A DNA stretch of 51,915 bases from an uncultured Lachnospiraceae bacterium (lineage in GTDB: Bacteria > Bacillota > Clostridia > Oscillospirales > CAG-272): the NCBI GenBank assembly GCA_964466625.1, contig CAYXQF010000003.1, forward strand, positions 1 to 51,915. Reading direction: 5' to 3'. Each line of letters opens with the position of its first letter. Position 1 is the first letter of the stretch. This document shows positions 21,563 through 43,800 of this stretch, one piece after another. A model generated the notes under the pieces. The model was not told where the DNA came from. It saw nothing but the letters and a program-made list of their open reading frames with translations, and made no database searches. Made by a program: the position numbers and the translations under genes.

Positions 21563-21709
21563 ATTTTTCTCCATTTCTTATGCAAAGTCAAGTAGATTCT
21601 TGACATCGGCGAGTCTTTGTGATATAGTTTTATTATATCATATCAAAAGTTATGAATATATGAATTTTAACGCAATAAACATAACTTTTGTGCCATGTCA
21701 GGAGACGCC

Positions 21710-25235: not shown

Positions 25236-25324
25236 GGGTAGCCCTCCTTCCTGCATGAAACGAGAATTTTATCTGATACTAAATTATACACCATTTGCCA
25301 AAGAAAATCTACTCTTTCCAAAGA

Positions 25325-25374: not shown

Positions 25375-26109
25375 TCATTTTGTAAAATCATGTTCTGCGG
25401 CCACATTGCCATTTTCATCGTAATCAATTTGCTTCGTTGTGCCACCGCCGCCATCTTCGTCATACGCAAAAAAGTATTCGCAATAAATGATGTCATTGGC
25501 ATAGATCGTCTGATGAATAATATTGCCATTATCATCATGTTCATATACGTAACGATAGATGGTTTTCACCGCGCCCGATGCATCATAAACGATCATACGA
25601 AGCGCTTCCAGATTTTCGTTATATTCGAAAGTTTCCTTGGTGCCGTCCTCATTATAGGTCGTGCTGCTCGCTAAATAAACTGCAGCAAATTCACTATTTT
25701 CTACATAAAGAAATTGCTCTTCCATATCAAGCACACCGTCAAAATAGGTCTTCATATTTTTGATGTTGCCATCTTCATAATATTCACATTCGGATTTCTG
25801 TTCAAAGAACATATTCCCATTTTCATCATAGTCGCGCATCAAAATCATCGTGCCTTGTTCATCATAAGCACAAAGCGAGCCGGAACCATCTTCATTTTTG
25901 TAAATGGCTACACCACAAACAACACACATATTGTCATCGTCAAGATCATGCTTTTGATAATTTTCACGTTCTCCGCAGTCCGAACAATCATTCCAATGTC
26001 CTTCCAGATCATAAAGAACAGGACTATTTTCATCAATGTGGCTTACTCCACAGCTTACAAAAAGGAGCGCCATCACAAGACAAATAAAAATTAAATAAGT
26101 TTTTTTCAT
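25375..26109 (-). CDS. lipoprotein with YD/MORN-like repeats
   Basis: ATG 26109 follows GGAG. MKKTYLIFICLVMALLFVSCG lipobox. Repeated YDEQG / YDENGN / YEDGN / YNEDG / YDASG / DDNGN units. Confidence 0.7.
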   Translation of the reverse strand: MKKTYLIFICLVMALLFVSCGVSHIDENSPVLYDLEGHWNDCSDCGERENYQKHDLDDDNMCVVCGVAIYKNEDGSGSLCAYDEQGTMILMRDYDENGNMFFEQKSECEYYEDGNIKNMKTYFDGVLDMEEQFLYVENSEFAAVYLASSTTYNEDGTKETFEYNENLEALRMIVYDASGAVKTIYRYVYEHDDNGNIIHQTIYANDIIYCEYFFAYDEDGGGGTTKQIDYDENGNVAAEHDFTK

Positions 26110-26274
26110 TATAAATCTCCATTCCGCCGCTGGCGGCGGCACAAATAAAATTCGAAATTGCATGACCGCAATTTTTGCGGCAAAATGGGTTTGGGTCCCA
26201 TTTTGAATGCAATTTGATAGCGTGATCACTGCATTTACCGATCGAATCAAGCTTCTTTCACGCTATTCTCCTCG

Positions 26275-26802
26275 TTATGGGTGGAAAAATTGATTATATT
26301 CTTGGTTGGTCATGCGAATCGTAAACGAAGCACTTTCACCCACGGCGCGAACGGAGAAGTTGCCCGTGATATTTTCAAAAGTATGCTCCAACGGATCGTC
26401 GGGTGTCAATCTGGCAAGGATCTTTCCTTCGTTCACAACGATCAAAACGAAATTGCCTTCTTTGACGGTAAATTCCGTGAAATCCAACGAAACGACGTTA
26501 TTGTTACCAATGTAATTATTATAAAAGATCTCGTGAACACCTGTAAATTTCTTGGAATGAAATTTAACGCCTTTAGTGCTTTCCGTTTTGGTAAAACCTC
26601 GGGAACCATAGTTCATATTGACCATATCCATATCGGTGATCGTCACAATGGAAATATCCTCTGCGCCATTTGTGTCTTCCACGTGATCAATTCCTGTAGA
26701 AAAGCCCCAAATCAAAACACCAACGAAAATGATCAGAAAGATCGGAAACATAATGATGCTTTTGATGTTGTTCGCTCTTCTGCCGAGTCTGATTCGAATC
26801 AT
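26275..26802 (-). CDS. hypothetical single-pass membrane-anchored protein
   Basis: ATG 26802 lies 6 nt after AAGGAGG and 14 nt after the AIM24-like stop. MIRIRLGRRANNIKSIIMFPIFLIIFVGVLIWGF anchor, then a beta-rich domain of about 130 aa. Confidence 0.6.
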   Translation of the reverse strand: MIRIRLGRRANNIKSIIMFPIFLIIFVGVLIWGFSTGIDHVEDTNGAEDISIVTITDMDMVNMNYGSRGFTKTESTKGVKFHSKKFTGVHEIFYNNYIGNNNVVSLDFTEFTVKEGNFVLIVVNEGKILARLTPDDPLEHTFENITGNFSVRAVGESASFTIRMTNQEYNQFFHP

Positions 26803-26816
26803 CACTGACCTCCTTA

Positions 26817-27539
26817 TCAATTATCGCCAAAACTAATATTGATACCGTCCCCTTTGGAGGAGGAGCCGCCGAGATAGCGCGCCAGAACCTCTGCTGTGTG
26901 GTAGATCGGCATGGACTGAATGTAGACCTTACCGGGGCCCGTTACGCGAGTATGGAACAAGCCCTCGCCGCCGAACAATGCGTTCTTAAATCCCTTGACG
27001 GATTGAATTTCCATCGTGCAGCTTTCGCTCATCGCCGCGAGGTATCCCGTGTCAAGCACGATGCTCTCGCCCGAACGAAGCTCGTATTCTTCACAATGAC
27101 CGTCAATCTCAAGGAACACCGTTCCGTTTCCGGTGATCTTCTGCATGATAAAGCCTTCGCCACCGAAAAAACCTGCGCCAAGCTTTCTTTGAAAATAGAT
27201 AGAAAGGTCAAGCCCCTTTTCCATCGCAAGAAATCCGCCCTTCTGAACGATGATGCCGTTGCCGGGAGTAAGCTCCAAGGGAATGATCGAACCGGGGAAG
27301 CTGGACGCGAAAGCGATCATACCGCTACCACCGTTCGGGGTAAATTCATTGATAAACATCGAGTCGCCCGAAAAAAGTCTGCCAAATGCTTTTTTCAGAC
27401 CGCCGCCCGTGTTGGTCTTCATTTCTATATTGGGACTCATCCAGCTCATAGAACCTTTTTCTGTGCAAAGCGTCTGTCCTGTCGTGGGATAGCAGACAAC
27501 AACCGGCAAACTGCCGCCTTTAATTTCATAATTAATCAT
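26817..27539 (-). CDS. TIGR00266 / AIM24 (DUF124) family protein
   Basis: MINYEIKGGSLPVVVCYP..., GEGFIMQKITGNGTVFLEIDG and GGEGLFHTRVTGPGKVYIQS match the AIM24 family as I remember it. Confidence 0.75.
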   Translation of the reverse strand: MINYEIKGGSLPVVVCYPTTGQTLCTEKGSMSWMSPNIEMKTNTGGGLKKAFGRLFSGDSMFINEFTPNGGSGMIAFASSFPGSIIPLELTPGNGIIVQKGGFLAMEKGLDLSIYFQRKLGAGFFGGEGFIMQKITGNGTVFLEIDGHCEEYELRSGESIVLDTGYLAAMSESCTMEIQSVKGFKNALFGGEGLFHTRVTGPGKVYIQSMPIYHTAEVLARYLGGSSSKGDGINISFGDN

Positions 27540-27559: not shown

Positions 27560-28696
27560 TTATAATTCGTCTTTCTCCGGAATTTCTCTTATGGGAGCGG
27601 TCATCGTTTTTTGCGAGGATCCTTTGTTCACAGAACCGCGTTCCTGACGTTCGGTCGGAATCTGTCGGCTGAGGTCCAGATGCTTTTTGATGGCGGCTTG
27701 CGCGTCTTCATAATCGCGAGCTTCCTGCGTTTGCTGTGCTTTCACAAGGGTATCCAGAATTTGCTTTTGGATAGCTTGCGCGTCTTCATAATCGCGGGCT
27801 CCTTGCGTTTGCAGCGCTTTCACAAGGGTATCCAGATTTTGCTTTTGGATAGCTTGCGCGTCTTCATAATCGCGGGCGCCTTGCGTTTGCAACGCTTTCA
27901 CAAGGGTATCCAGATTTTGCTTTTGGATAGCTTGTGCGTCTTCATAATCGCGGCTTTCCTGCGTTAGCGGTGTTTTCGCGAGGGTATCCAGATGTTGCTG
28001 ACGCTCGTAGCTTTCCGCAAAGCGCTCCATCTCTTCAACCCAAGCGCCGCCTTTGATAAGAGAACCATTCGCTTTGGCGTCGTAATACTGATTGATCTTT
28101 TCGGTGTATTTCGTACCCTGCTCTTTTTGTTCTCTACAGAATTTAGCGTAGTTTTCTTTTTCGGCAGCTTCGAATTTTTTCATTTCGCTTCTTCTGTGCG
28201 CCCAGCGCTTAAAGGGATTGCGGCTATAAGATTTATCCGCTTTCAACTCCTGTTTTTTATTACGCAGATCGACTTCCATTTTTGTTTTGGCGTCTTTGAT
28301 CGCATCTTCTCTTCCTGCATTTTCCGCCTCCATGGCTTCCACGATCGGCGCCATGCGGTTCAGTACGGTGAGCGGTCTATTGAATTCGCGCGCCGATCTT
28401 TCCGGATCCACGAGTTTGATACCTCCCTCAAATGCATCCAAACAGGTGAGGATCAGATCTTCATTAAAGAACATCAAACTCTCAAGCCCAAGTTCCGAGG
28501 CAACTTTCGCGCCATCATAGTATATCATCGCGTTGACCGCGATCCCATACGATGCAGGGAGTTTTTTGATCCTATCTATAAAATCCGCATACTTAATGGG
28601 CTCGTTTTCTTTCATTTGCTTAAATAGAGGCAAGGAATCTAATTTTTCTTGATCAAAACGATCACCGATGATGTTGGGATCATATGTTTTCGTCAT
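27560..28696 (-). CDS. hypothetical signal-less protein with four 26-aa tandem repeats (satellite cassette 1)
   Basis: ATG 28696 lies 8 nt after AAGGAG. The C-terminal half contains (A/S)RDYEDAQAIQKQNLDTLVKALQTQG about 4 times. Has its own repeat-bearing promoter. Confidence 0.75.
   Translation of the reverse strand: MTKTYDPNIIGDRFDQEKLDSLPLFKQMKENEPIKYADFIDRIKKLPASYGIAVNAMIYYDGAKVASELGLESLMFFNEDLILTCLDAFEGGIKLVDPERSAREFNRPLTVLNRMAPIVEAMEAENAGREDAIKDAKTKMEVDLRNKKQELKADKSYSRNPFKRWAHRRSEMKKFEAAEKENYAKFCREQKEQGTKYTEKINQYYDAKANGSLIKGGAWVEEMERFAESYERQQHLDTLAKTPLTQESRDYEDAQAIQKQNLDTLVKALQTQGARDYEDAQAIQKQNLDTLVKALQTQGARDYEDAQAIQKQILDTLVKAQQTQEARDYEDAQAAIKKHLDLSRQIPTERQERGSVNKGSSQKTMTAPIREIPEKDEL
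27697..28008 (-). repeat. 78-bp in-frame tandem repeat, about 4 copies
   Basis: Unit starts at 27697, 27775, 27853 and 27931 (cttg[c/t]gcgtcttcataatcgcg...). The first three copies are near-identical; the fourth decays in its second half. Confidence 0.9.
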
Positions 28697-28736
28697 AGCA
28701 AAATTCTCCTTTAAGATCATTTCTTCTTACGCTTTT

Positions 28737-28798
28737 ATTTTAGCAAAAAAAACGTCAAATGACAAGTAGTCAAAGCCTTTCTTCACACTTCTTCACAA
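28737..28798 (-). promoter_or_regulatory. promoter with tandem TGTGAAGAA direct repeats (cassette 1)
   Basis: Minus strand: TTGTGAAGAAGTGTGAAGAA (28798-28779), 13 nt, TTGTCA (28765-28760), 17 nt, TAAAAT (28742-28737). Confidence 0.8.
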
Positions 28799-28813
28799 AT
28801 GGGAACAAATGCA

Positions 28814-28850
28814 AAAAAGAGCGATCACGACATGCGTGATCACTCTTTTT
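28814..28850 (-). terminator. rho-independent terminator after cassette 2
   Basis: aaaaagagcgatcacg-acat-gcgtgatcactcttttt, with one mismatch. Confidence 0.7.
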
Positions 28851-28860
28851 GACCGTATTT

Positions 28861-29877
28861 TTAATCCAAAATGTTTTTGTTTTTTTCATTTTGCACCGTG
28901 CGCACGGGAGCATCCTTTTCGCACGTTCTGTTCTTGTTTTTTCCGTGATTTGTGATATGCGCGCTCAGATCGAGTTGTCTTCCCGCAGGCTGTATCTCGG
29001 TGCGGTTCGCCTCTCTCCTCGCCTCATGACACATGCGAAAATCTCCGGAACCGATCTGTATGCGGCGATTATTCGCCACGTCGGGATAAGGATTCCCCAT
29101 CTTTTTTAAGCGTTTTTCATAGTCCTTCTGCATGGTGTCGCGAATCTTGTCAGCCTTTTTGTTGAGATCCTTTTGCGCTTTGTCTGCTTTTTTGAGCGCT
29201 TTTTGATCCGCTTTTGTGAATGCTCTCGGATCGTTCGCTCTCTTTTGGCGAAGAATCTTGCTTTGATGCTTGGCGTCGTAAAGATCCAGTCTTACTTTAT
29301 CCAGTTTCTCATTCTCTTTTTCCCAAAGCGCGGATTCCTTTTCGAGATACTCTGCCTTCGCGGCATCTTTCTCGCGCAAATCTTTGATATATGCCGCAAA
29401 AGCTTCCTTATCTGCGCGTTTGTTTTTCAGATAATTCATTTTATCGTAGTCAACGTTTTCAGAGTGGATCTCTTCCGTGTCGCGCTGAATTTCAGCGTCC
29501 AAGCGATACGCCATCGCGCCTTCCACATCTTTTACGGGATACCGGTCTTCGATCAAGTGATAGAACAAGTGCATATCGCGAATTTGATCATCGCTTGCCA
29601 TTCGATTCAGAGCATTCCCTATGTTTTCGCTCACGTCCAGATATTCTGACGGTTGTTTTTTCTCTTCCTTCGGTGCAAGAAGCGCGTTGGAAAGCATCTC
29701 AAAGTATACGCCGGGAACTTCTACCAAGTAACTCTGGAGTGTCTCTCTTTCTGATTTTATGTAATCCGTTCTCTTACTATTATGTGGATCGATCAATTTG
29801 ATATACCAGTTCGTGATCAGCGCGATCTCGCTCTCTGTCAATTTCTGGTCTATAACATCATTCATGGTTCTGGGCAT
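28861..29877 (-). CDS. hypothetical signal-less coiled-coil protein with GNPYP module (satellite cassette 2)
   Basis: ATG 29877 lies 8 nt after AGGAGGA; the TTG at 29883 is too close to the RBS. Lys/Glu-rich helical protein. C-terminal part reads KIRDTMQKDYEKRLKKMGNPYPDVANNRRIQIGSGDF. Confidence 0.75.
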   Translation of the reverse strand: MPRTMNDVIDQKLTESEIALITNWYIKLIDPHNSKRTDYIKSERETLQSYLVEVPGVYFEMLSNALLAPKEEKKQPSEYLDVSENIGNALNRMASDDQIRDMHLFYHLIEDRYPVKDVEGAMAYRLDAEIQRDTEEIHSENVDYDKMNYLKNKRADKEAFAAYIKDLREKDAAKAEYLEKESALWEKENEKLDKVRLDLYDAKHQSKILRQKRANDPRAFTKADQKALKKADKAQKDLNKKADKIRDTMQKDYEKRLKKMGNPYPDVANNRRIQIGSGDFRMCHEARREANRTEIQPAGRQLDLSAHITNHGKNKNRTCEKDAPVRTVQNEKNKNILD

Positions 29878-29987
29878 CTTCAAATCCTCCTATCATTCAT
29901 TCTGTTCATACGATGGGATCTCTATATCCCTCATCTCTAATCTCAGCATATCTGCCACCTCCTGCGGTCATGCTGTTCTTTGTATTC

Positions 29988-30049
29988 ATTGTAGCAAAAA
30001 AAGAGGAAAATGACAAGTACCCTCACCTTTTCTTCACACTTCTTCACAA
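29988..30049 (-). promoter_or_regulatory. promoter with tandem TGTGAAGAA direct repeats (cassette 2)
   Basis: Minus strand: TTGTGAAGAAGTGTGAAGAA (30049-30030), 13 nt, TTGTCA (30016-30011), 17 nt, TACAAT (29993-29988). Followed by a leader of about 100 nt. Confidence 0.8.
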
Positions 30050-30061
30050 ATGAGAAAGCGA

Positions 30062-30094
30062 CAAAAATACCCTTGCGCAAAAATGCGCAAGGGT
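30062..30094 (-). terminator. rho-independent terminator after cassette 3
   Basis: cccttgcgca-aaaa-tgcgcaaggg with a T-run on the minus strand. Confidence 0.75.
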
Positions 30095-30100
30095 GCTTTC

Positions 30101-32461
30101 TCAAAGATCTGCTTCGAGTTCTTCCTGTTGTTTCTGCCGTATCGTTTTTTCTGCCGAAAGCGCCACTTCCCTTTGCGGTGTCGCAAGGGTTTTTTCGGGC
30201 GCTTTGGTGGTGCTGGGGATCGAACCTTCGGGGAAAACGACGGGTGTTCTTTTGATCTCCGTTGCCGCAGGCTTCTTGGTTTCTTCGGGTTTCTTGATTT
30301 CTTCGGGTTTCTTAATTTCTTCGGGCTTCTTGGTTTCTTCCGCCTTCTGAACTTCCGCAGACTTTTGAAGCTCCTCTGTCTTTTCCGCCTGCTTGGTGGG
30401 CGGTGTAGGCAAAGGCTTCGAAGGAGTCTTCTGCTTTTGCTCTTTTGTGGGATTTGTGACGTCTGCACGCACGATGACCTGCTTCGCTTTCTCTGAAAGT
30501 CCCGGCGTTTCACGAAGTGTTTCTTCCTTGGTGGCAAGCGGCATAAAACCGAGCTGTCCCGCGCGGATCTGCTCACAGCGCATCGCCGTATGTTCGGGGA
30601 AAGGGTTACCGATCTCTTTTGTGCGCGCAACCGTATCGCGGATCATCTTCTCGCGAAGTGCCTTCAATGCTTTTCCCTTGTCAAGCGCCACACGGGCAAG
30701 AGCCTTCAGCTGTGCTTTATCTGCTTTGGAAATGGGTGCTTTGGTGGCTTTAGGCGCTTGCGCTGTCGGTGCGCTTTTTTCTTCTTCAGAAAGAGATGCT
30801 TGCGGCGTTTCCGTCTGCTTCAGCGCCTTATACTGTGCATACGCTTCTCGATAAGCGATGCTTGCCGCGCCGAGTTGCTCGTTTTCTTTGGAATAGGATA
30901 GCTCTCTGTCCGTCAAAAAATCGCGTTTGGCATCTTCTTGATGTTGCTTATACTTTTCCGCGCCATAGATCTGCGCGGTTTCGCTTTGCGTAGCAAGCGG
31001 CATGAGTTGTGTTTGACCTGTCGAGATTTGACTGATACGCATCACCGTATGCTCAGGAAAAGGATTTCCTTCATTTCTCAGGCGCACAGCGGTGTCAACG
31101 AGAAGTTCTTTTTGCACTTTTCTGAGCGCTGCCGTCTTTTGAGCGAAATCCTTCTCCGCTTTTTTCAGTTGTTTTTCATCTTTTGCGGAAAAATCACGGC
31201 CCAAAAGCTCTTTCTTTCGCCGCAGATCTTCCAGCTTCTGTCTTGCGGTTTGCTGAGGATCTATTTTTCTGCGAAGCTTTTTATTTTCACTCTCGTAAAT
31301 TTTACGTTTGCCTTTTACAAGATCGAGTTTCGCTTTCTCACGGCGCATTTTCTGCTTTGCTTCCGATTTTTCTTGCTTTTGCTCCTTAGTAGCACCAATG
31401 CGAGGCGTTCTTTGACGTATCTCCTTATATTCTTTTTCCGCGTCCTTTTGTGCTTGTTTTTGACGTGTCAAAAACGTATCGACACCTTTTTCACCGATCG
31501 CTTTATCCTGATGGAATTTTTCACGCGAGGTTCTCAAGGCTTCCGCACGCTGAGCACTTTCGCTTTCGACAATTTGCGGAAGACGCGCCTTATGATACGC
31601 AAGGCTCCGCTCGGAAAGACCTTCTTTCAGCTTGATATTCCCTTCTGCAAGATTAGCAAGAATATTCATGACGCTCTTGGCTTCCTTGGGTGTCAGAGGT
31701 TCTCCCGGTGCTTTTGCGGCAAATCGGAAAAACTTTTCATAAGCGTCATCGGTCATCTCGATGTAATTGCGCGGATCTTCGCGAACACCACCCACGCCGA
31801 TCACGGATTTTTCCAAAAATTCATAATATTCCGCGGGGATTTTTTCATAGGTGTTCACAAAACGCCTGGAAAGATCTGCTTTCTCGTCTGATCCCGAAAA
31901 CGTGATCACCTCTGTTGCAAAAGAATGGAACGTCGGCTGGTCATATCGTTTGCCGATGACGTCAACAATCGCGCGATCATGCAAAAACACTTTTGAGAAT
32001 TCCTCATCGGAAAGGAAATATTTTTGGTCTGCATCTTCTTTGATCGCCTCGTCAGCCTTTTCTTCTTTTGCAGGCGGTGCCATATCCATCACGGGCGGTG
32101 CGACTTCTTCTTTCTCCTCTTTTTCCTCTTCGATCGCTTCTTCACGGCGAATGAGATCGTATTCACCCTCAGCGAGCTTATTCAAAAAGGAAATGATATT
32201 TGTCACATTCCGCTCACCGAGCGTTTTGTCATCTTCGGAAAGAAGCTCCGTATCCACCTGAAAATAGGCAGAAATATCTTCCGTTTTGCCGTCTTTGCCG
32301 ATCAAAATGCCTTCGATCGCTTCCAAATATTTTGTATCAATTTTATGCAATGCTTCTTCCGCAAGCTCACGGATCTCTGTTTCTGTGAAATCATCATTTG
32401 CGAGCTGTCGGAAAAGCAAATCAAATTGTTCTTTGTTATAATTCGTTCCGATTTTTGGCAT
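30101..32461 (-). CDS. hypothetical 786-aa signal-less protein built of duplicated modules (satellite cassette 3)
   Basis: ATG 32461 lies 8 nt after AGGAGG. Two N-terminal copies of a domain of about 100 aa (KIDTKYLEAIEGILIGKDGKTED...NIISFLNKLAEGEYDL versus KIPAEYYEFLEKSVIGVGGVRED...MNILANLAEGNIKL). A long Lys/Glu/Gln coiled coil. Two GNPFPEHT modules. KKPEE[IT] repeats near the C-terminus. Confidence 0.8.
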   Translation of the reverse strand: MPKIGTNYNKEQFDLLFRQLANDDFTETEIRELAEEALHKIDTKYLEAIEGILIGKDGKTEDISAYFQVDTELLSEDDKTLGERNVTNIISFLNKLAEGEYDLIRREEAIEEEKEEKEEVAPPVMDMAPPAKEEKADEAIKEDADQKYFLSDEEFSKVFLHDRAIVDVIGKRYDQPTFHSFATEVITFSGSDEKADLSRRFVNTYEKIPAEYYEFLEKSVIGVGGVREDPRNYIEMTDDAYEKFFRFAAKAPGEPLTPKEAKSVMNILANLAEGNIKLKEGLSERSLAYHKARLPQIVESESAQRAEALRTSREKFHQDKAIGEKGVDTFLTRQKQAQKDAEKEYKEIRQRTPRIGATKEQKQEKSEAKQKMRREKAKLDLVKGKRKIYESENKKLRRKIDPQQTARQKLEDLRRKKELLGRDFSAKDEKQLKKAEKDFAQKTAALRKVQKELLVDTAVRLRNEGNPFPEHTVMRISQISTGQTQLMPLATQSETAQIYGAEKYKQHQEDAKRDFLTDRELSYSKENEQLGAASIAYREAYAQYKALKQTETPQASLSEEEKSAPTAQAPKATKAPISKADKAQLKALARVALDKGKALKALREKMIRDTVARTKEIGNPFPEHTAMRCEQIRAGQLGFMPLATKEETLRETPGLSEKAKQVIVRADVTNPTKEQKQKTPSKPLPTPPTKQAEKTEELQKSAEVQKAEETKKPEEIKKPEEIKKPEETKKPAATEIKRTPVVFPEGSIPSTTKAPEKTLATPQREVALSAEKTIRQKQQEELEADL
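30270..30351 (-). repeat. 18-bp in-frame tandem repeat (KKPEEI/T), about 4 copies
   Basis: tttcttcgggtttcttga / tttcttcgggtttcttaa / tttcttcgggcttcttgg / tttcttccgccttctgaa, starting at 30280. Confidence 0.85.
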
Positions 32462-32497: not shown

Positions 32498-32559
32498 ATT
32501 ATAACAAAACGGGAGGAAAATCTCAATCCCCTCACCTGATTCTTCACATTTCTTCACAC
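32498..32559 (-). promoter_or_regulatory. promoter with tandem TGTGAAGAA direct repeats (cassette 3)
   Basis: Minus strand: GTGTGAAGAAATGTGAAGAA (32559-32540), 13 nt, TTGAGA (32526-32521), 17 nt, TATAAT (32503-32498). Confidence 0.8.
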
Positions 32560-32561: not shown

Positions 32562-32593
32562 AAAAACCGCCGATTTTCATCGACGGTTTTCGG
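32562..32593 (-). terminator. rho-independent terminator ending the T4SS-like operon
   Basis: aaaaccgccgat-tttc-atcgacggtttt, 7 nt after the VirB4-like stop. Confidence 0.75.
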
Positions 32594-32599: not shown

Positions 32600-35251
32600 T
32601 TATGGATTTTCGTTTTCAAAAACATCACGGACGTGATCCGATGCGACAACGGAAATGCCAAGTCGGGAAATCGGTCCCGTGATCATAAAGGCACTGCCGC
32701 GATCGTTATTGATGATATCCTGCTGTTCGGTTTCGTTGATCTCGCCCGCCTTTTCATAAAGCGCGCAAAGATCCGCCATATCGTTGGGAGCCAAAGCAAA
32801 GATCATGGAATACTGGCAAGCATTGATGATCGCCGTAGATTTTCTTGCGATCTCGGGGCTGCCCACGAAGTCCTTGATATTCTGCGTGATAACGATCTGC
32901 ATACCGTTGTATTTACGGATACGTTTCGCAAGCTGGAACATAAAGTCCAGCGCAATGGGATATTTCGTATCGATGAAAACGTGTGCTTCATCAATGACGA
33001 TGATGATCTTTCTGTCTGTGCCGTATTTCAAGTTGAAATCACGGTTTTTAATGATCTCATTATCAAGCCATTTCAAAACGAGAAGCATCTGTGCATTGGC
33101 GATGGTGTTATTTTTATTGGCAAGCAAGCTTTGGAAATTGAACACTGCAAAATTTTCCTTGACGGAAAGGCTATTTTCGCCGTTCCAAAGGTTGGCGTTT
33201 CTGCCGTCACCTGCGAATTTTGCAACGTAGTTGTCAAGAATTCGGAGATTCGCAATGTCATATTCCGCTTTTGCTTCCGCCTGACGTTCCTTGATCAGCG
33301 CGTAAAGATCATCAAAGGTAGGATAATCCTTCGGCGCAAGCTTTGTCAGATCCGTATGGCGTGTGATTCCCATTTTATGATAGAGGGAAAGAACGATGTT
33401 ATTGAGATATTCCAAAGCATCGGAAGAAATACCGACAAGGATCTGCTTGAAAAATTCCTCCAGGAACTGCAGATGCACAGAGAAATTGGCATTCACGCCG
33501 TCTGCGGCTTCGTCCGCTTCCAGCGTTGTGATGATATGGAAGGGATTCAGACGTCCTTCCTTTGCGGTGCCGACGTCCAGAACCTTACCGTTCAAGTTGC
33601 GCGCAAGTGTCGTATATTCATTTTCGGGGTCGAGAATAAATATCTTACTATTCTCTGCCGCAAGATGCGTGAGAAGCGTTTTCGTAGCAAAGGATTTGCC
33701 GCTACCCGATTTACCCATGATAACCATATTGGAGTTAACTCTTTCGTTATTTCTTTTGAAAAAGTCTACGATCACAGGGAAACCGTTGGAATGACCGAGC
33801 AGAACGCCCTTGTTATCCATCACATAATTCAAAACGAACGGGAACACTGCCGCGATCGAGCTTGCGTGAATGGAGCGATAATGCTCCGCAAGGCTATCAT
33901 AAGGAGAAGGCATTGCCGCGGCAAACGCGCGAAGCTGTTTTGCGCTGTTTTCACTGGTTTTGAAACCGCCTTCCGCAAGCATACTGCGCACACGCTTGCG
34001 AAGACTTTCTTTGGAATTTGCTTCATCGCCGAAGATCGCGATGTGGATATTAACCTCATAGAGCGTTTCGTTGTCATTTTGAAGCATTGCCAAAAGCTCA
34101 ACGAGTGTATCGATGTGTGTTTGCTGGTCGATGATATCCGATGCCTTGAACGCGCTGAAGTTCTTTGCGAGAAGCTCTTGCAAAGCTTTATCAATGCGGC
34201 GCACCGCTTTGGATTTTTCGATCGGAATGATATTCATCGTTACCTTCGTGCCGGGAATATTAAAGATCTGATAACCCCATGCGTTTTTCACGGAAAGCGG
34301 ATAGTCACGCACGGAATACAGATGGCAGACTTTACCGTCGATATAGGATTTATTCAGACGGAATTCCACCGTTTCCGGCATGATATAATTCATGTATTCA
34401 TCGGGTTCATAATAGTCGATCTCGCGTTCATCGAAATCTTGCGTATAATTATATTTCAAAAAGACCGCAAGCTCTTTATCGTTCAAACGATGACATTCCA
34501 TCGTCTTTTCCGTAAATTTGGTGATCGCGGTATTGAGAATTTCCGAGATCGTAGCGGGATTGGTATCATAAACCACGAAATAATAAGCCGATTTATAAAC
34601 CACGGAATTGGTGTTCAGTTCTTCAAGGATCGCCGCGCGGTCATCAATGATATGCTTTCTCGACGTGGTTTCCTCATAAGCGATACCGCCGGATTCCATC
34701 GTTTTATCAATATCGTACTTTTTATTTTTTTCCTGCACGATATAGTCGTCAAGCATGATCGGTCGATCGATCTTCACAAGAGAGGCACGCGTCTTTCCCG
34801 TCACGCCCTTGATCACGTTGGCAAAGACCTTGTCGATCAATTCGTTTTGCTTATATTCGGAAAGAAGACGGAATTCCTTCGGGGAGATCTCCAAAACCCC
34901 TGCGACGTACTCATCGTATTCGATGAGCCCATCACGGATTCCTTTATAAGGAAAGAGCACGGACATATCGTCCTTGGAATTTCCCGTATTTTTCTTGAAT
35001 TTTTTGTTGCTGACAGAATAAACGAGCCAGCTTCCCATCTGCACGTAAAGCTTTTCTCCATCGACGGGAAGATAAAGACAAACGAAAACACCAAGCACGA
35101 CTGCCATGATGAGATACTGCATTCTGCCGAAATTCGCGAAGAGCAAAAGAAGCTCAATACCGATACCGATCACACCGATGATCAGATCCACTAAGCTGAC
35201 GTTACGGTAAAATTCAACCTTTACCTTTGTTTTCTTTGGTATGATCCTCAT
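32600..35251 (-). CDS. VirB4-family T4SS ATPase with fused N-terminal VirB3/PrgI-like two-TM segment
   Basis: Walker A MGKSGSGKSFATKTLL, Walker B IIIVIDEAHVF. The N-terminal 70 aa hold two hydrophobic helices (LVDLIIGVIGIGIELLLLF, YLIMAVVLGVFVCLYL). The ATG overlaps the upstream TGA (ATGA at 35248-35251). Confidence 0.85.
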   Translation of the reverse strand: MRIIPKKTKVKVEFYRNVSLVDLIIGVIGIGIELLLLFANFGRMQYLIMAVVLGVFVCLYLPVDGEKLYVQMGSWLVYSVSNKKFKKNTGNSKDDMSVLFPYKGIRDGLIEYDEYVAGVLEISPKEFRLLSEYKQNELIDKVFANVIKGVTGKTRASLVKIDRPIMLDDYIVQEKNKKYDIDKTMESGGIAYEETTSRKHIIDDRAAILEELNTNSVVYKSAYYFVVYDTNPATISEILNTAITKFTEKTMECHRLNDKELAVFLKYNYTQDFDEREIDYYEPDEYMNYIMPETVEFRLNKSYIDGKVCHLYSVRDYPLSVKNAWGYQIFNIPGTKVTMNIIPIEKSKAVRRIDKALQELLAKNFSAFKASDIIDQQTHIDTLVELLAMLQNDNETLYEVNIHIAIFGDEANSKESLRKRVRSMLAEGGFKTSENSAKQLRAFAAAMPSPYDSLAEHYRSIHASSIAAVFPFVLNYVMDNKGVLLGHSNGFPVIVDFFKRNNERVNSNMVIMGKSGSGKSFATKTLLTHLAAENSKIFILDPENEYTTLARNLNGKVLDVGTAKEGRLNPFHIITTLEADEAADGVNANFSVHLQFLEEFFKQILVGISSDALEYLNNIVLSLYHKMGITRHTDLTKLAPKDYPTFDDLYALIKERQAEAKAEYDIANLRILDNYVAKFAGDGRNANLWNGENSLSVKENFAVFNFQSLLANKNNTIANAQMLLVLKWLDNEIIKNRDFNLKYGTDRKIIIVIDEAHVFIDTKYPIALDFMFQLAKRIRKYNGMQIVITQNIKDFVGSPEIARKSTAIINACQYSMIFALAPNDMADLCALYEKAGEINETEQQDIINNDRGSAFMITGPISRLGISVVASDHVRDVFENENP

Positions 35252-36807
35252 GAACCTTTACCGTCCTTTCCTGTTGCTCTTCCCTGGATCGCGCCGCTGA
35301 CTTTACCCTGCATATGCTGGTTCATCGGCTTCGCCGTCTGCTGAGGCGATTCGCCTTTTGCCGCACTGACAACGCCGGGCTGTCTGCCGCTCAAAGCTTC
35401 TGCAACAGAAGGCTTCTTCTTTTCCTCATTTGTCTGCGGTGCCGAGGCTGCCTGCGGCTTTTCTGTCTGCCGCTGACTGTCAGAGGCAGGTTTTTGATAA
35501 GCGGGATTGAAGGTTCTCGTATTTTTGAGAACACTTTCGAGTTTGCTTTGCGAAGTGCCGCCTGCCGCACCTGCGTTACCGGCAGCGCCGGCAACACCTG
35601 CTTTTCCGGCTGCCCCCGGCGCACCGGCAGATTTTTCTTTCGGTGCTGAGGCTTTCAATTTTTCAGAATATTTCTGTCTTGCCGCTTCACCCTTAACAGC
35701 ACGCTTTGCTTCGCTGTTTCTGTGAATGGCGGCTGATGCGTCTTTTTTCAAATGCTGGATCGGCATACCGGCAAGGTTGGCAAGCTTGCCGACCGTGTGT
35801 CCTGCCACAAAGCCTGCCACAGAACGAATACCTGCGTTTGCTGCCTGATTTTCCATTTTGTCAGCCGTACCTGCGCCTTGGTTGACAAGGTTGCCTGCCA
35901 GAACCGTCCCTTTTCGGCAAGCAAAGGCGCCGCCGATGATAAAGGCAACTCTTGCAAGTTGATTCAAAAAGCTATTGTTGAAAAATTCCACTTCCTGAAT
36001 CGTATGGACAAGCAACATAAAGATATTGATGGAAAGCAGTGAACCGTATGCAATCAAATATTTATTGATCACCTGATCACGCCAAAGCTTAAAGCGCGCA
36101 CCTTCATCAAGAGGTGTCGTGCTCATGGAAAGGGGCGAAACGATAAAGAGGAAAACGATGCCCACCACACGTTCCACAAAGCTGAAAAGTGAAAGCGCGA
36201 TCAAAATCAAAACCACGATGCCGCTGAGATAACCGATGAGGTAGTCCATAGACTCCAAATCAAAATATCTCTCTACGTCACCGGTGCTGAAATAATCATA
36301 GCCGTCAGCGCCTCGAATAAACTGATTCAAGACCTGTGTTTTGTTTCCGTCACCGTCCCACGCGCCGTCTGCGGCTGCCGCAAACAGCATACCGCCAAGA
36401 CTGGTATTACCCACAGAGGTCGCATCGTAAATAGAAGTCATGACCGTGGAAACGACAACGACGCCAAGCGACATGATAGCGGGAACGAGGAGAAAATACA
36501 AGAGCGTTTTCGCGGAATCCAGGCAGATCTGAATCGCGCTTTTACCTTCGCCAAGTCTGCCCATGGAGCGGAATACGCTATACGCTGTAAAGATAAAAAG
36601 CAGGATAAAACCGATGACAAGAACTGCCTCGAAAGCGCCTACGACAAAATCATTCGTGATAAAATAATATACAAGATCTTGCTTTTCCCCATCAATCGCA
36701 ACTGGTTCAATACCACAAAGCATGCCTGCGATATCAATCAGAAAGTCGATGCAGAAAAAAAGCGACTTCATCAGATTAAATAATAATTGCCAAAACCAAT
36801 TAAACAT
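35248..36807 (-). CDS. polytopic membrane protein, VirB6/TcpH-like T4SS channel candidate, with low-complexity tail
   Basis: About 330 aa with 6 or more TM segments, starting MFNWFWQLLFNLMKSLFFCIDFLIDIAGM. Then an Ala/Gly/Lys/Gln-rich tail of about 190 aa (AGAPGAAGKAGVAGAAGNAGAAGG). It occupies the position normally held by VirB6-like genes. Confidence 0.55.
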   Translation of the reverse strand: MFNWFWQLLFNLMKSLFFCIDFLIDIAGMLCGIEPVAIDGEKQDLVYYFITNDFVVGAFEAVLVIGFILLFIFTAYSVFRSMGRLGEGKSAIQICLDSAKTLLYFLLVPAIMSLGVVVVSTVMTSIYDATSVGNTSLGGMLFAAAADGAWDGDGNKTQVLNQFIRGADGYDYFSTGDVERYFDLESMDYLIGYLSGIVVLILIALSLFSFVERVVGIVFLFIVSPLSMSTTPLDEGARFKLWRDQVINKYLIAYGSLLSINIFMLLVHTIQEVEFFNNSFLNQLARVAFIIGGAFACRKGTVLAGNLVNQGAGTADKMENQAANAGIRSVAGFVAGHTVGKLANLAGMPIQHLKKDASAAIHRNSEAKRAVKGEAARQKYSEKLKASAPKEKSAGAPGAAGKAGVAGAAGNAGAAGGTSQSKLESVLKNTRTFNPAYQKPASDSQRQTEKPQAASAPQTNEEKKKPSVAEALSGRQPGVVSAAKGESPQQTAKPMNQHMQGKVSGAIQGRATGKDGKGS

Positions 36808-37854: not shown

Positions 37855-40800
37855 TTATTTCACTTTCGCCTTACTGCTGACAATCAGGAAAATGAATCCG
37901 CTTGCGCCGACAAGGGAAAGCAACATAAGAATGATAATGTTGGAAGCCGCGTTGCTTGTGAATTCTCTTGTGAATTCATATTCAACGGTATTTCCGGCTT
38001 CGTCGGAAACCACGATTCTGTAATTTCCGGGTTCGCTGATAAACGGAGGGTTATCAACGTCTTTTGTCGCCGTTTTGGAGTAGACAAGCTCTTGACCGCG
38101 GTAAACATCCACGTGGTCACCTTTCAGAAGGCCCATGATCGTAACATCGTTTCTTGTCGTACCGCCGTGGTCTACACCTTCCAAGGTCACGTCCGGCGGT
38201 GTGTGGTCAATGGATACGCCAAATCCGTAAACGGTGCCGCTCAAAAGATCCTTCAGCTCGATATCGTACGCGCCGCTCTGATTCAAAGAGACCTTTTGTG
38301 CGCCGGTTTCGTCGGTGGAAATTTGACTCACATAAGAGAGTCTGTCTGCACCGTCGACCAGCCAAACGCCCGAAATGGCAAAACCGGGAAGAACTGTGTA
38401 GTCAAGACTGGTGATCGCATGCGTGAAGATCGCAAATTCGACCTTCGAGGTGTTGCCGATGACATCGGCAAGCTCGATCTCATACACACCGTGATCACGG
38501 AAGACAAGATCGCTCGTTTCCAAGATCTCGCCGTCCTTTTTCACGGAAACCACCTTCAGCGTTTCTCCATCACCGGAGATCGTGATGATCTCATTGGTCG
38601 CGATGCCGTTCGGCACGCGGTTGTGACCGATGATGATCTTGTAGCTCACGGCGGTGTCCACGATGATCGTTTTCGAAGTGCTGTTGCCTGCAAAGTCGAA
38701 GAACGTGAGTACGTATTTACCGTTTTCACTGAGAAGCTGATCTTTTTCGTAGACAGTTGTCATCGAGCCAAGCGAATAACGCGCCGAAATCTGAGGATCT
38801 GTCCACGTGTAGCCGAACGAGCCTTTGACAAATCGCTCGTCGCCAACGCTGATCATCTCCACGCCATCAAGCAAGAAAGCTTCGATGACCCGTTTTTGCA
38901 GATGAACGGTAAAACGGTATTTGTTTCCGTATTCGTCCATATAGTCGATCTCGTGCGTTTCATATCCTTCCGCGAATGCGGGCGGGAATGTCAAGATGTA
39001 TTCGCCGTCTACGATAGATACCTTCTCGCCGTCCACCTTGAGAACAGCGGCTTCTCCGCTGTCACCGATGATGACAGAGCGGTTGGACCATGCGCCTTTG
39101 GCGAGAACCTGCTCCATCGCGAGCAGCTCAGGCGTTGCACTGCTTTCGGTGAGTCGGGAAACAGTGATCTGTCCGCCGTCCGAAATACGAACGGTTCGTG
39201 TCACGCTGTTGCCGTATTCATCGGCAAATACGATCTCATAAGCGCCGTTGCCTTCTTTACCGATGCAGCCAAGGAAATCTTCTTCCTTGTATTCTGCAGG
39301 GTTCGGAATGAGAAGATTATAAAGAATATGTTTTACAGAGGTTTCACCGTTTTGTGTCACACGGTAATAGATGTAGCGGATATCGTCACTAACGAAGCGA
39401 GCGTAATCCACGTTGACCTTACCGTTGGTATACATCTTATCCCGATAAGGCGCTTCTTCGTTGAAGCCCGTCAAGTAATTGTTATACGTAATCTCCGTCG
39501 GCGCCTTCAAGGATACGGTGAACGTCAAAACGTTGCCGCAACCGTCGTCCACGAGGATCTTGTATTCACCGACTTCGCTCACGGTGAACGTGAAGTACCG
39601 TTTGGAAGCTTTGGCGTCAGGCGTAAACGCTACGCCGTCCTTTTGCGCTGTCACGGTGCAAGTGTCTTTTTCCGCCCAGATCGTAAACTGTACGGAATGA
39701 TTGCTCTTTGCTGTGAAGCTGCCGCTTTTATCCACGGTGTATTCCACCGTTTCCAGATTGTCATAGAAAATCTTCACGACGGCTTCAAAGCCAAATCCGA
39801 TGCGAAGAAAAACGATCTGCGTATTGCCGTAAACGTCCTCTGTCACGATCTTATAATAGCCTTCGTCCTTCATTTCGGAAATGTTCTGACCTTCACCGAA
39901 CAAGATGTTTTCCGTCTTGCGGTAAAAATCAAAGGTTTCCTTTTCGGAATAATATACGGAAATCTTTACGACCGCTTCCGTGATGCTCGGTTCATAGATC
40001 GTCACCGCGCTCTTGGCACCCGTATAGACCTCTTCGTTTTGGGTGTTTGTTTCGATCAGCTCGCCCGTTTCCTTTTCCACGAAACGAACGACCGTCGCAC
40101 GGTTGGAGCGTTCAAACTGAATGATGACGGGAGAAGTATTTTCAAGATCCGTCACACGGATCTGCCAGAATTCAAAGCCGTCTGTCGGCTTCGGAAACAT
40201 CAGCGTCAGTTTGCCGTCCTTGATTTCGTAATTTATCACGAAATCGTGCGTAACGTTTGCAAACAGCTCGCCTGCTGCCGCATTCACCGTTTGCAAGAGC
40301 TTGTAGCTTCTGCCATTCAGATAATAAAGCTCCAAGCCTTCGGCGTGATACTGTATCTGATAGATCCCACTTCCTGCTTCATTTTGATACAGGAACGCGA
40401 CCGTCGCGTATTCTGTAAGGACGAGTTTTATGTCCTTGCTCGTATACTGCGTGTCAGCGAATTCGCCGTCATAGATCAAAGACAGAGGGTTTTCGCTGTA
40501 TTCCGTCTTTTCGCCGTCGATATAATAGGAAAGACCGATATCACTCGCGATATTGAACGTCATCGAAGTGGAATTATTCAAAATATCCGTTACGGTAACG
40601 GTATATTTACCAAATCCGCTGACGGTCATGGAGCGAAGCAAGAGCTGTCCTTGTGTCAAGGGAATGACCTTGCCATCTCTTGTGATCGTGACGTTTCGGA
40701 TCTCATTGGCATCGTCCCAAGTGATGGTCACGTGACGGCAGTTAAGTGTCTGACCGTTTTCCACGGGAATGGTTACGGCACTTTTTTCTGCGAACAAGAC

Positions 40801-43800
40801 GTTCGCTATGCCATTTTGCTCATTCCACGTGTATTCCTGCGTGATCGCTTTCGCAAATACATCCGGAGGTGTCTTGTCTTGCGCGCAGGTCACAATAATA
40901 TAGGTGGAAGGATCTTTTTTGTGGGCAATCTTGATCGTCCATGCACTGCTGTTATCAATGATGCGCACATACTGCGAACCAGAGCGAGTATGTTTGAGTG
41001 TCGGATTACCGAAGATCACGGTAAATTCGTATTCCGCATCGGCATCGTATTTGAGACGGATCTCCGACGATGCAGTGACCTGATACGCATTGTTGCCGAG
41101 GCTCACGACGTAAGCGGAGCCGTTGACATCGCTGCCCATCGGAACGTAATCGCCATTTTCATCCTTGCATTGGAATTCCACGACGGGAAGCGATCTTTGG
41201 AATTCAAAGGTTTCCGAATAGGTATTGCCGTAAATGTCGGCAAGCTCAATGGTATATTTACCACTCTCATAAAGTGTGAGCGTCGACGAATACTCAATAT
41301 CCATCAGAACGCTGTCTTTATAAAGCTTGAAGCCACCGATCGCGATCTCGTCTGCACTGCGGTTTACCGTCAAGATCAAAGCTTCATCGTCCTTGACCGT
41401 TGCCGTTGCGTAAAGATCACTTTCATTGGCACGGATCGTGATGCTTGCAAAGTTACCAAGACGGTCATAAAGATAAACGATCACGGTGTCTTCCGTCAGT
41501 TTCAGTCCGCCGGAAGCTTTCAGCTCCTTGGCAGTCATAAAAGCAATGACTTTACCCGAGGTGCTGGTCACATAAAGATACGCGTGTTCATCGTATTCGG
41601 GGGTATATCCGCCGGCTGTGGTCACAAACTCAAGAAGTGTAACAGAGCCTGCGCGAATGGTGGAGCCGCTGACGAAGCGGTCGAGATAGCCCGACTGCGT
41701 TTTTCCGCTCTGCGTATATTCATAGCGGAGTGTCGGTGCGTAAAAGTCTGCGTAAACGAAGAATTTTCGGCTACCATTTCCGTCAAACTCGATAAATTCG
41801 TAAACGCCTGTTTTCGAAACAAGATCGCGGAGTTTTACGGATCTTCCCTTTTCCACGATCACTTCCGTATATTCACCCACGTTGCCACGACCGTTATATT
41901 CACGATAGAAGAGCACAGTGCGTCCGCTATCGGAAGTGAAGGTGTAGTTCGCAAGAAGATACGCCTCGTCGATTTCACTGTAGCCGTGAATGTTCGAGAT
42001 CGTTGTGCTATAAATTTCCGTGTCACCCTTATAGGTGATCTCTTTGGAAAACGAACCTTGATAGGTAAGGTCTTCATCAAATACGGCGTCCTTCTGATAT
42101 TTCGGTTCGCCGTTTCCGTCTACCTCGCCTGTATTTGCCGTGAGATAGAGCCATTCGCCGTTATCGTAATTACTGATCGACTTTGCATGCTGTTTCAGCG
42201 CATCGCCGATGAGAAGGCTCATCACTTGATCATAATCAAGAGAAGTTTCTTGCTGGTTGCTGTAATAATAGTAAGCGTAATCCTGCGCGTTGGGTGTCTG
42301 CGAGGTGTCCCAAACGGTATTTTTGTATCGGATCCAAGTCTGCCCCGTTGCCGCTGTGGCGGTTTCACCAATGGCTTTCTTGAAGTGAGCCGACATACCG
42401 CTATTGAGCAGGTTTACGATCGAGGTGGAATTCGGACCGAGGTAAACGAGTGCCACGTCCTGCAATTCCATAAAGAGCGCGTATTCATACGCTTTGTCTT
42501 TATCAGAGAAGGCAGGTGCTGCACCGCTTTCCGCATAGCGGTTAGAGGTGATCTCATAGGAAAGCATTTCCGTTGCTTCGTTTCCGGAAACCTCAAAGCG
42601 ATAGAATCGCTTATTGGCAAAGGTCCAAACGCGGTTGGTAAGAAGACCTTCCTCCGAAATAGAATAGAAGTTATTCGGCATATCGTTTTCCGTTGTGAAG
42701 TATACGGGGAAATCGGTCGCTGTTTTTTCATTGTAGAAGAATGAAAATTCGTAATAACCCTTGGCATTTTCATTCACTTTCACGGTGATAGATTGGGATT
42801 CAGGGTTATATTGAATGCTTTCGATACCGAAAGTCTTGCCGTCATTCTTGCCGAAGCCGTCCGTGTAAGGATCGGTTCCGCTGTAATCTTCATCAAGCTC
42901 GAAGATTTCTTTGCCGTTGTGTATGATTCTCGTCACGCCGAATCTATCGCCTGCGGAATAAGGGTTATCAAGCTTGAACTCAAATTCATAGCTCTTACCT
43001 TCTCCGCTGACGAGGACTTCATAGCCCTTTACGGTTTCAATCTCCGTCACGGGATCTTCCACAACGTCGACCTCAAATTCGCCATGGCTGTCAAACAAAA
43101 CGAGGGGGGAATAGAGGATCTGATCTTCCGCTGTCTTGTTTCCGTGCGTATCCTCGAAAACGAAACCGATCTTATATTTCGCAGAAGTGTTCACAGGCAT
43201 GCCGATGGTTTTATAGGAAAGCGTGATCGTGCCTTTCAATCCGTTAAAGGAAAGAATGTCATCCGAGCGGTTTTCTGAGCCGTAGACCGTGCGTCCGTTG
43301 ACGAGCGCATCGCCGCTTTCAGCGATCACATACATATGAGCGTATTTTAGATCGTCAAAATCCGCTTCATTCATCACAACGTACAGTGTGTGAGAAGGCA
43401 AGGAATTCGCCGCGGTATCGCAGGTGATGCTTTCCGCTCTCGGCGGTATCGCATCATAGTAAAATGTCAACGGGCCATACGTCCAATAGGCAGAAGCGCC
43501 GTTTGCCCCTTCAGCCTTAACGTGCAGATAATAATCTCCGTTCACATTTTGATGTGTAAATACATTCGTGCCGATGACAAAATTTGTTTTTTCAATCCAA
43601 TCGGAAACGGAGTATGCATCGGACGAAGTCGACCAAGCGTAATAGAGTTTACCGCTTGTAGTCATTTGAGAAAGCTCCACGCTGACAGAATGAGATTGTT
43701 CTTTCTTGTTTTCTGTTGCGCAAGTTCCATTACTGAGTTTCGGCGTACGAGTATCAATATCCACCGTGCCCAAATTGACATCAGCAGACGTAGGAAGCAC

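Follow-up and report, generated by a model that had tools for sequence, protein, structure and literature searches.

Three gene cassettes behind a type IV secretion operon

The window analysed here is a stretch of 51,915 nucleotides from an uncultured Lachnospiraceae bacterium (assembly GCA_964466625.1, contig CAYXQF010000003.1, positions 1 to 51,915), and our subject is a set of three genes, A, B, and C, which the list of open reading frames (ORFs) places downstream of the VirB4 gene of a type IV secretion system (T4SS) on the same minus strand. Scanning the sequence revealed that each of them has a good ribosome-binding site and a promoter of sigma-70-like type with the -10 box in extended form, and that a direct repeat, which we regard as a predicted operator, precedes this promoter. 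The resulting cassettes are composed as follows, in the direction of transcription:

32563..32590, minus: hairpin and T-run after the virB4 stop codon, read directly, separating the T4SS operon from cassette C
32540..32558, minus: predicted operator of cassette C, TGTGAAGAAaTGTGAAGAA, then -35 TTGAGA (32526-32521) and -10 TATAAT (32503-32498)
32461-30101, minus: gene C, ORF of 786 aa
30069..30094, minus: intrinsic terminator of cassette C, 11 pairs of which 7 are G-C, with a T tail
30030..30048, minus: predicted operator of cassette B, TGTGAAGAAgTGTGAAGAA, then -35 TTGTCA (30016-30011) and -10 TACAAT (29993-29988)
29877-28861, minus: gene B, ORF of 338 aa
28814..28850, minus: intrinsic terminator of cassette B, 16 pairs
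28779..28797, minus: predicted operator of cassette A, TGTGAAGAAgTGTGAAGAA, then -35 TTGTCA (28765-28760) and -10 TAAAAT (28742-28737)
28696-27560, minus: gene A, ORF of 378 aa (386 aa from an alternative upstream ATG)

A first-pass annotation made from the letters and ORFs had proposed three products of 378, 338, and 786 aa, a repeat-bearing promoter for each gene, and terminators for two cassettes; the ORFs, the sigma-70-like boxes with their repeat, and the hairpins at 28850-28814 and 30094-30069 bear this out. No terminator was found after gene A in the sequence scan.

One family of hydrophilic, largely helical proteins

The products of A, B, and C are hydrophilic (grand average of hydropathicity, GRAVY, -0.9 to -1.1) and charge-balanced with isoelectric points of 5.5 to 8.5. 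Since their maximum 19-residue hydropathy is at most 1.06, we consider them free of transmembrane (TM) segments and signal peptides, and the hydropathy profiles contain no N-terminal hydrophobic stretch. The hydrophilic character and the lack of a signal peptide or TM segment had been noted before and stand confirmed, and of the disordered, basic or polar C-termini described at the same time the disorder is supported by AlphaFold2 (AF2) prediction, but the extreme ends are acidic (EKDEL, LEADL) rather than basic. Sequence motifs and structure prediction give the following architectures:

C: N-domains at aa 1-105 and ~165-290; helical hairpin with YESENKKL; GNPFPEH modules at aa 465 and 618; KPEEIK repeat; disordered tail ending LEADL
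B: one N-domain (VPGVYFEML); hairpin with WEKENEKL; GNPYP module at aa 261; disordered tail
A: N-terminal IGDRFD...LPASYG; RNPFKRW; 26-aa repeat x4; LDLSRQI; EKDEL end

Smith-Waterman shuffle tests uphold the annotated GNP[FY]P module, present twice in C and once in B: the two copies of C reach a score of 156 against each other (shuffles 27±4.8) and of 87 to 88 each against the module of B (shuffles 27±4.9), 0 of 1000 shuffles attain the score, and z lies between 12 and 27. The N-terminal duplication proposed for the 786-aa protein was likewise recovered (z=5.1, with 0 of 1000 shuffles as high). B is colinear with aa 162-504 of C across the N-domain (hP[AG]xYYxxL), the Y/WEKENxKL helix, and the G[ND]P[FY]P...R..QI..G element, and profile comparison of the two families with hhalign gives 99% probability at E 1.6e-18. 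A matches B and C in the N-terminal pattern IGxx[YF]D...LPxxY, an N-domain hidden Markov model (HMM) built without A ranks it above all decoys among 4157 ORFs (E 0.078), and one tail is common to the A-type protein L5_294 and the B-type protein L1_406 (E 1e-13). Judged by these matches, the three appear to be paralogues of one small family with one architecture, of which A is a divergent member with a weakly supported link.

The family plan comprises one or two N-domains of ~100 aa (IGxx[YF][DN]...hPxxYxxL), a predicted long antiparallel helical hairpin with a conserved EKEN motif, and a G[ND]P[FY]P...R..QI..G turn-helix followed by a disordered tail with an acidic/aliphatic C-terminus. The AF2 models are confident (77-94) only where the long antiparallel hairpin passes into the GNP turn and the short helix after it; they render the N-domains poorly and predict disorder for the tails. 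Only M, P, Y, L, D, E, K, N, R, and G are found among the residues invariant across paralogues, with no His. Acidic/aliphatic ends such as EKDEL, LEADL, IEDPIV, and IDEPxx recur throughout the family, and for the 8 C-terminal residues the net charge is -1.9 compared to +0.26±2.3 in controls; nearly all close members begin with MP.

A word-based search of 5.8 billion proteins returned 4 homologues for C (P0001-P0004, 59-65% identity), 1 for B, and 3 for A, and a profile search of 1.84 billion representatives gave 17 matches, 3 of them spurious; the family amounts to ~12 clusters among these representatives. Rejected as members were P0015 and P0019, whose sequences proved on reading to be FN3-like repeat proteins ("PG.YYTFLVS"), and P0023 (7327 aa, 14 matched stretches), which was judged spurious from its hit pattern only. 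All relatives are named "hypothetical protein" in their sources, and the nearest genome is "Eubacteriales bacterium fecal_MAG_325" (hereafter MAG_325), with a VirB4 99% identical to that of the window. B and C have zero matches to curated families in Pfam-A, NCBIfam, PHROGs, and PADLOC; the sole curated-family match of A, to ZorA (E 0.0067, 13 bits), was dismissed as a chance-level coiled-coil match. Searching PDB sequences with the family gave nothing below E 0.1, and the best Foldseek matches in the PDB are generic helical proteins at E>1. A relative of C was not found in the plasmid collection, and the literature on mycoplasma integrative conjugative elements (ICEs) holds no counterpart of A, B, or C (CDS19 there is a TM protein). 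The initial impression that these proteins belong to no known family is thus borne out by all these searches, and none of the outcomes named at that stage as refutations came up; in particular, the structure prediction and Foldseek comparison suggested there did not clearly match any protein with a role in partition, anti-restriction, or the relaxosome. In the same vein, no domain matches to relaxase or relaxosome features (HUH or Tyr motifs, ribbon-helix-helix or helix-turn-helix domains) were obtained for A, B, and C, and with regard to WXG100/LXG-type substrates of type VII secretion there is no WXG or LXG match in Pfam and the adjoining ATPases are VirB4 and VirD4, not EssC.

A predicted operator shared with the secretion operon

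The direct repeat TGTGAAGAAnTGTGAAGAA stands about 13 nt 5' of the -35 box in each cassette, and its 3 matches in the window compare to 0.01 expected. A cassette-like layout, with 13 nt between the repeat and TTGAAA, is found ahead of the gene of the type IV coupling protein (T4CP), the first of the T4SS operon:

47338..47398, minus: T4SS operon promoter with predicted operator TGTGAATGTTTGTGAA (47398-47383), -35 TTGAAA (47366-47361), 17-nt spacer, and -10 TAAAAT (47343-47338)

The common pattern TGTGAA-N4-TGTGAA has these 4 sites in the window (3 cassettes and the T4CP promoter; 0.35 expected). Our operator scan covered all fetched loci, designated by L numbers, and detected the pattern in 18/18 family-bearing loci and in 0/79 other VirB4-related loci, with all instances located 60-160 nt 5' of a gene start. 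Its targets are family genes, the T4CP gene (window, L094/95), an extra pilin gene (L094), and a further hydrophilic gene (L090), and even orphan family copies among sugar-utilisation genes (L002/3/86/87/88 and L092/93) retain it. The repeat is best explained as a predicted operator with a tandem 10-bp period that would define a regulon of T4SS and family genes, and its presence at both the T4CP operon and every cassette agrees well with the co-regulation that had been proposed initially.

In L090, four consecutive TGTGAAGAA half-sites instead of two are found (11255-11290) ahead of the hydrophilic gene, which encodes 338 aa and is unrecognised by the family HMMs.

Response regulators of the OmpR/PhoB family usually have sites in which direct repeats follow each other in tandem every 10-11 bp beside the -35 box. 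Genes for such a two-component system stand directly upstream of the T4CP gene:

48882-47452, minus: multi-TM histidine kinase
49553-48879, minus: OmpR/PhoB-type response regulator (Pfam Response_reg 1.3e-15, Trans_reg_C 2.6e-16)

Orthologues of the response regulator and the kinase (88% and 78% identity, respectively) again flank the T4SS in L094. From the type of site and this conserved linkage beside the T4SS we infer that the pair probably acts on the operator and controls the regulon. As in known OmpR/PhoB regulons, tandem direct half-sites with a 10-11-bp period lie just upstream of, or replace, the -35 box, and the genes of response regulator and kinase adjoin the regulated operon; a point of difference is that the response regulator here reaches no NCBIfam equivalog cut-off, and a LytTR regulator is also nearby:

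24519-25256, minus: LytTR-type response regulator at the far edge of the island

Known LytTR sites consist of 9-bp repeats ~21 bp apart, and because of this other spacing we judge the LytTR regulator the less likely binder of the operator. It is found without an adjacent kinase at the island edge in three assemblies (the window, L001 20186-20902, and L005 4405-5142). In the window, a gene for a lipoprotein with MORN-like repeats (25375-26250) is inserted between it and the island.

Gene A is separated by a gap of only 20 nt from the next gene and reads into it:

27539-26817, minus: AIM24/TIGR00266-family gene (domain match), in one transcript with A
26820-26275, minus: gene for a 181-aa single-TM protein, in one transcript with A

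Cassette A is thus an operon with the AIM24 gene and the TM-protein gene. The same pair follows the last cassette in L001, L005, and L090; given this invariable position and the lack of an own promoter in the window, it belongs to the same regulon. Together, the AIM24 gene and the gene for the single-TM protein (175-181 aa) span 26275-27539 in the window, 18768-20032 in L001, 3007-4268 in L005, and 12440-13716 in L090.

A chromosomal secretion machine with no relaxase

The T4SS operon itself is composed of the following genes:

45145..47295, minus: type IV coupling protein, VirD4-like, CD1115 family (family match)
37855..45141, minus: surface protein of 2428 aa with signal peptide and C-terminal TM anchor
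37797-37495, minus: pilin-like protein of 100 aa, Mbov_0395 family (52 bits, cut-off 40)
37495-36830, minus: lipoprotein
35248..36807, minus: VirB6-like polytopic membrane protein of 519 aa, MMCAP2_0566/Mbov_0396 family (152 bits, cut-off 90)
32600..35251, minus: VirB4 ATPase, Mbov_0397 family (NCBIfam, 612 bits, cut-off 590)

With three NCBIfam families all above cut-off, the machine is by its profile matches a mycoplasma-ICE-type T4SS, and among plasmid VirB4s those of Spiroplasma come closest to its own, at 26-27% identity. The large surface protein is presumably a contact adhesin. It has faint Calx-beta and BiPBP_C matches only, and its size is kept at 2400-2530 aa across related T4SS loci. 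Profile scans detected no recognisable VirB8 or VirB1 component in the T4SS, and no ORF at 24.5-51.3 kb or 0-25 kb of the window has a relaxase, integrase, or transposase domain. In the island from 24.5 to 49.6 kb every gene is accounted for, and the coupling protein is nonetheless kept. The hallmarks of an ICE, i.e., a relaxase or a DDE/FtsK-type alternative together with an integrase or excisionase, are absent from the window, and the flanking genes (FakA, DegV, LytTR) are chromosomal genes syntenic with another assembly. The T4SS is therefore chromosomal and relaxase-less, with its coupling protein retained.

Elsewhere in the window, ORFs without Pfam match comprise four consecutive ones on the plus strand at 8-5161 (151, 205, 340, and 1008 aa) and two large ones on the minus strand at 15761-19570 (691 and 539 aa), which have the FakA/DegV genes on one side and a melibiase gene on the other.

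Linkage and rapid divergence of the family

Family genes adjoin a mycoplasma-ICE-type T4SS in ~7 lineages and are orphans in 2. The linked loci are those of the window and MAG_325 (3-5 genes), L001 (6), L007 (2), L089, L090, L094, and L096. In L007, where VirB4 is 75% identical, the two members follow straight after virB4 and are recognisable by profiles only, and in L094 the family gene sits between the extra pilin gene and the T4CP gene. The hairpin found after virB4 of the window also stands before the orphan C homologue of L002. The test of phylogenetic co-occurrence recommended in the first-pass annotation thus finds the family beside the T4SS in most of its lineages, and the two orphan lineages still keep the operator. 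Genetic linkage (synteny in ~7 lineages) and co-regulation (the predicted operator), both expected of T4SS substrates, are found here.

The family diverges far more rapidly than the machine. Ratios of dN/dS are 0.02-0.04 for VirB4, 0.05-0.11 for AIM24, 0.12-0.25 for C, 0.14-0.32 for A, and 0.50 for B, and at equal dS between the window and MAG_325 the dN of the family is 18-33x that of VirB4. Copy number varies from about 2 to 6 per locus, and tails are swapped between paralogues. When B (28861-29030) is compared to its 80%-identical orthologue (L004 7340-7535), the sequences part abruptly after ...GSGDFR and continue into unrelated tails, of which that of the window keeps the RQLDLS motif of the family and that of the orthologue ends IDELEPKSK. 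The DNA itself diverges abruptly, which indicates tail replacement and led us to reject a frameshift as cause of the odd C-terminus of B. Gene A contains an in-frame tandem repeat of 78 nt at 27696-27999 (3.9 copies, 90% match) that encodes units of 26 aa, TLxKAxQTQxARDYEDAQAIQKQxLD. All three homologues of A (301 aa) have a single copy each, and the expansion in the window is therefore recent. Similarly, an 18-nt repeat in the tail of C (30270-30348, 4.4 copies) gives rise to KPEEIK units, and its length differs among orthologues.

The cassette array of MAG_325 is split over two contigs (L004 7632-9149 and L005 245-873). Genes for a large serine recombinase and for TnpV/DUF6809 at the break suggest that a transposon has inserted inside this array.

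Analogous arrays in other Firmicutes

Relatives of VirB4 at 55-60% identity are encoded by Erysipelotrichaceae, Bacilli, Anaeroplasmataceae, and some Clostridia, and there one to five genes for hydrophilic proteins of 400-860 aa without TM segments come after the VirB4 gene. These array proteins have no match in Pfam or NCBIfam. They begin with MP in 16/44 cases compared to 19/741 of the other ORFs, and they have acidic ends such as DDLDLSN or DDLNLSK. Homology to the family of the window could not be demonstrated (hhalign E at least 0.015), and we treat them as analogues. Direct-repeat operators were found in only three of the 79 non-family loci (L017, L018, and L020), in which the repeat TGTKGCA-N4-TGTKGCA stands ~10 nt 5' of the -10 box of each cassette and of the promoter of the VirB6-like gene; in L017 these sites are the following:

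8519-8536, 12763-12780, 15120-15137, 18602-18619, and 21703-21720: TGTKGCA-N4-TGTKGCA

The fact that cassettes and VirB6-like promoter share a repeat of their own therefore points to the same design with another operator word.

A protein of ~178 aa (MNxKQLxxLxKNNEESREFTR...) recurs within the arrays (L017 14315-14851, with equivalents in L018, L020, L021, L026, and L045). It is conserved, has a weak DUF6262 match only, and may act on the arrays as regulator or chaperone.

Candidate cargo of a possibly protein-translocating T4SS

We propose that A, B, and C are translocated substrates of the adjacent T4SS, a reading to which we assign a probability of roughly 0.4. They are the best candidates for its cargo because they share an operator with a machine that lacks the usual DNA-processing genes. 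The proteins would be made in the cytoplasm, be largely helical, and form one regulon with the relaxase-less T4SS. The multi-TM histidine kinase and the OmpR-type response regulator would bind the operator and turn on machine and family genes together, the coupling protein could then recruit the family via the conserved hairpin/GNPFP module and/or the acidic tail, and the T4SS would finally export the proteins, which would end up either on the surface or inside a cell that has been contacted. A more far-reaching scenario sees here a dedicated protein-translocating T4SS that arose from a mycoplasma-ICE-type machine minus its DNA-processing genes, with A, B, and C as effectors, the hairpin/GNPFP region and acidic tail as delivery domain, a dedicated two-component switch, and the same design widespread in Clostridia, Erysipelotrichia, and relatives; in its entirety, this scenario is tentative and rather doubtful.

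Several observations weigh against translocation. Neither in sequence nor in fold do the proteins resemble known secretion signals (XVIPCD, BID, Dot/Icm E-block, or the Arg-rich VirB/D4 tail) in searches of Pfam, the PDB, and Foldseek, and the tails of the family are acidic, not Arg-rich as in VirB/D4 signals. The two orphan lineages (L002 type and L092 type) have no T4SS within their contigs, and close relatives of the T4SS in Ca. Scatosoma have no family genes within 10 kb. Coiled-coil and disordered proteins are generally expected to evolve fast as well, and attention was drawn to the C-terminal motif and to the MP start post hoc, with homologous tails not being independent observations. 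Profile comparison links A weakly to the other two (E 0.02-0.09), and overall confidence of the AF2 models is low (mean pLDDT, the predicted local distance difference test, of 58 for B and 57 for C, from alignments of 5 rows each).

The alternative that survives best is that the proteins are not exported at all and instead serve as cytoplasmic accessory or adaptor parts of the T4SS, e.g., as scaffold, chaperone, or ATPase-docking factors in place of VirB8, VirB1, or a relaxosome. Scaffold proteins typically have long helical hairpins, regulon and synteny are common to family and machine, and a T4SS without recognisable VirB8 or VirB1 could well use such parts. Structural partners, however, should keep the pace of the machine, and a dN of 18-33x that of VirB4 is at odds with this, as are the variable copy number, the redundant paralogues, and the swapped tails. 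The T4SSs of Ca. Scatosoma moreover function without such genes nearby, and we therefore consider an accessory role somewhat unlikely.

It also seems unlikely that family and machine merely answer to the same two-component system, with the proteins having a T4SS-independent intracellular role in a broader response to cell contact, aggregation, or envelope state. The operator kept by orphan copies far from any T4SS would fit such a role, as would the absence of a secretion signal of known type and the co-transcription of cassette A with the AIM24 gene and the small TM protein, neither of which is part of a T4SS. Yet the family is encoded within a few kb of the T4SS in ~7/9 lineages even if the T4SS makes up only ~1% of the genome, and distant Firmicutes have positionally equivalent arrays after VirB4.

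Decidedly improbable is a role in non-canonical DNA transfer, be it as pilot, DNA-coating, or establishment protein (compare the transfer of primase, SSB, PsiB, and ParB) or as an unrecognised relaxosome. In favour of it, the T4SS belongs to a conjugative type, that of the mycoplasma ICE, and has kept its T4CP without a recognisable relaxase, and transfer of accessory proteins is known for conjugative T4SSs. Against this stand the conserved chromosomal flanks without an integrase and the proteins themselves, which gave no domain match to nucleases, HUH or Rep proteins, recombinases, or DNA-binding proteins, whose paralogues have neither a histidine nor any catalytic-type residue in common throughout, and whose charges are balanced. 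Finally, the low-complexity, charge-rich composition and overlapping antisense ORFs could raise the suspicion that the ORFs are not genuine or that the module is compositional chance in Lys/Glu-rich sequence, which is effectively refuted by dN/dS <1 in all comparisons, orthologues in several assemblies, the shuffle scores of the module, the ribosome-binding site and promoter of each gene, and the terminators at B and C.

Relation to known systems and significance

If the family is indeed translocated, its closest parallels would be among effectors of gram-negative bacteria. The X-Tfe effectors of Xanthomonas and Stenotrophomonas are similarly differing proteins encoded near a T4SS that have no Sec signal and share a module of ~100 aa towards the C-terminus, XVIPCD, which is recognised by the VirD4 coupling protein. 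Unlike in our family, which has no sequence or fold match to them and a Gram-positive host, X-Tfe have enzymatic toxin domains and adjacent immunity genes, neither of which is seen here, and the module shared here is a predicted helical hairpin that sometimes occurs twice per protein. The Bep proteins of Bartonella are, like our candidates, a paralogous family that arose by duplication beside VirB/VirD4 genes, with a repeatable helical delivery domain and a charged tail. Their BID tails are positive whereas the tails here are acidic, BID and FIC domains are not present here, and no link to a relaxase signal, from which the Beps derive, is visible.

The machine shares the order of pilin-like protein, polytopic TM protein, and VirB4 with the mycoplasma ICE (Mbov_0395/0396/0397, i.e., the CDS15-17 region, plus the CDS5 T4CP). 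In contrast to the latter, it belongs to a walled host (a Clostridia/Eubacteriales metagenome-assembled genome of 46% GC) and lacks a DDE transposase, and NCBIfam detected none of the other mycoplasma-ICE genes among the window proteins scanned; the giant adhesin and the A/B/C family are additions relative to it. T4SSs without a relaxase have been described in monoderm Patescibacteria, where VirB2/T4SS_pilin-like, VirB6, VirB4, and T4CP components are found and the systems are thought to be co-opted and non-conjugative (PMC12102498). These resemble the present case in their monoderm host, component set, and lack of a relaxase, but they belong to another phylum and neither a candidate cargo family nor a shared operator is described there. 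For the T4SS of the 89K island of Streptococcus suis, export of SspA-1 was proposed in a Gram-positive host (PMC12857230). That system is similar to ours in being a Gram-positive T4SS proposed to export protein, and it differs in that SspA-1 is a subtilisin-like protease, VirB1 and VirB8 are present, the island is mobile, and there is no multigene cargo family.

The machine type is therefore already known, and the A/B/C family is so far undescribed. It has long been asked whether some Gram-positive T4SSs evolved into machines dedicated to effector translocation, and a recent review of the field finds essentially one example (PMC12857230). Our locus adds a concrete candidate on which the question can be tested, since a relaxase-less T4SS with a T4CP is joined here by a defined operator, a likely regulator, and a few signal-less, fast-evolving, and co-regulated proteins with one module in common. 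The operator can be used to find further cargo genes across genomes, as the orphan copies show. Should the proteins be accessory parts instead, they would account for the ability of a minimal T4SS in a monoderm host to do without VirB8 and VirB1. If they are cargo and the arrays of Erysipelotrichaceae and Bacilli work alike, this would be a common and unrecognised secretion route in gut and rumen Firmicutes.

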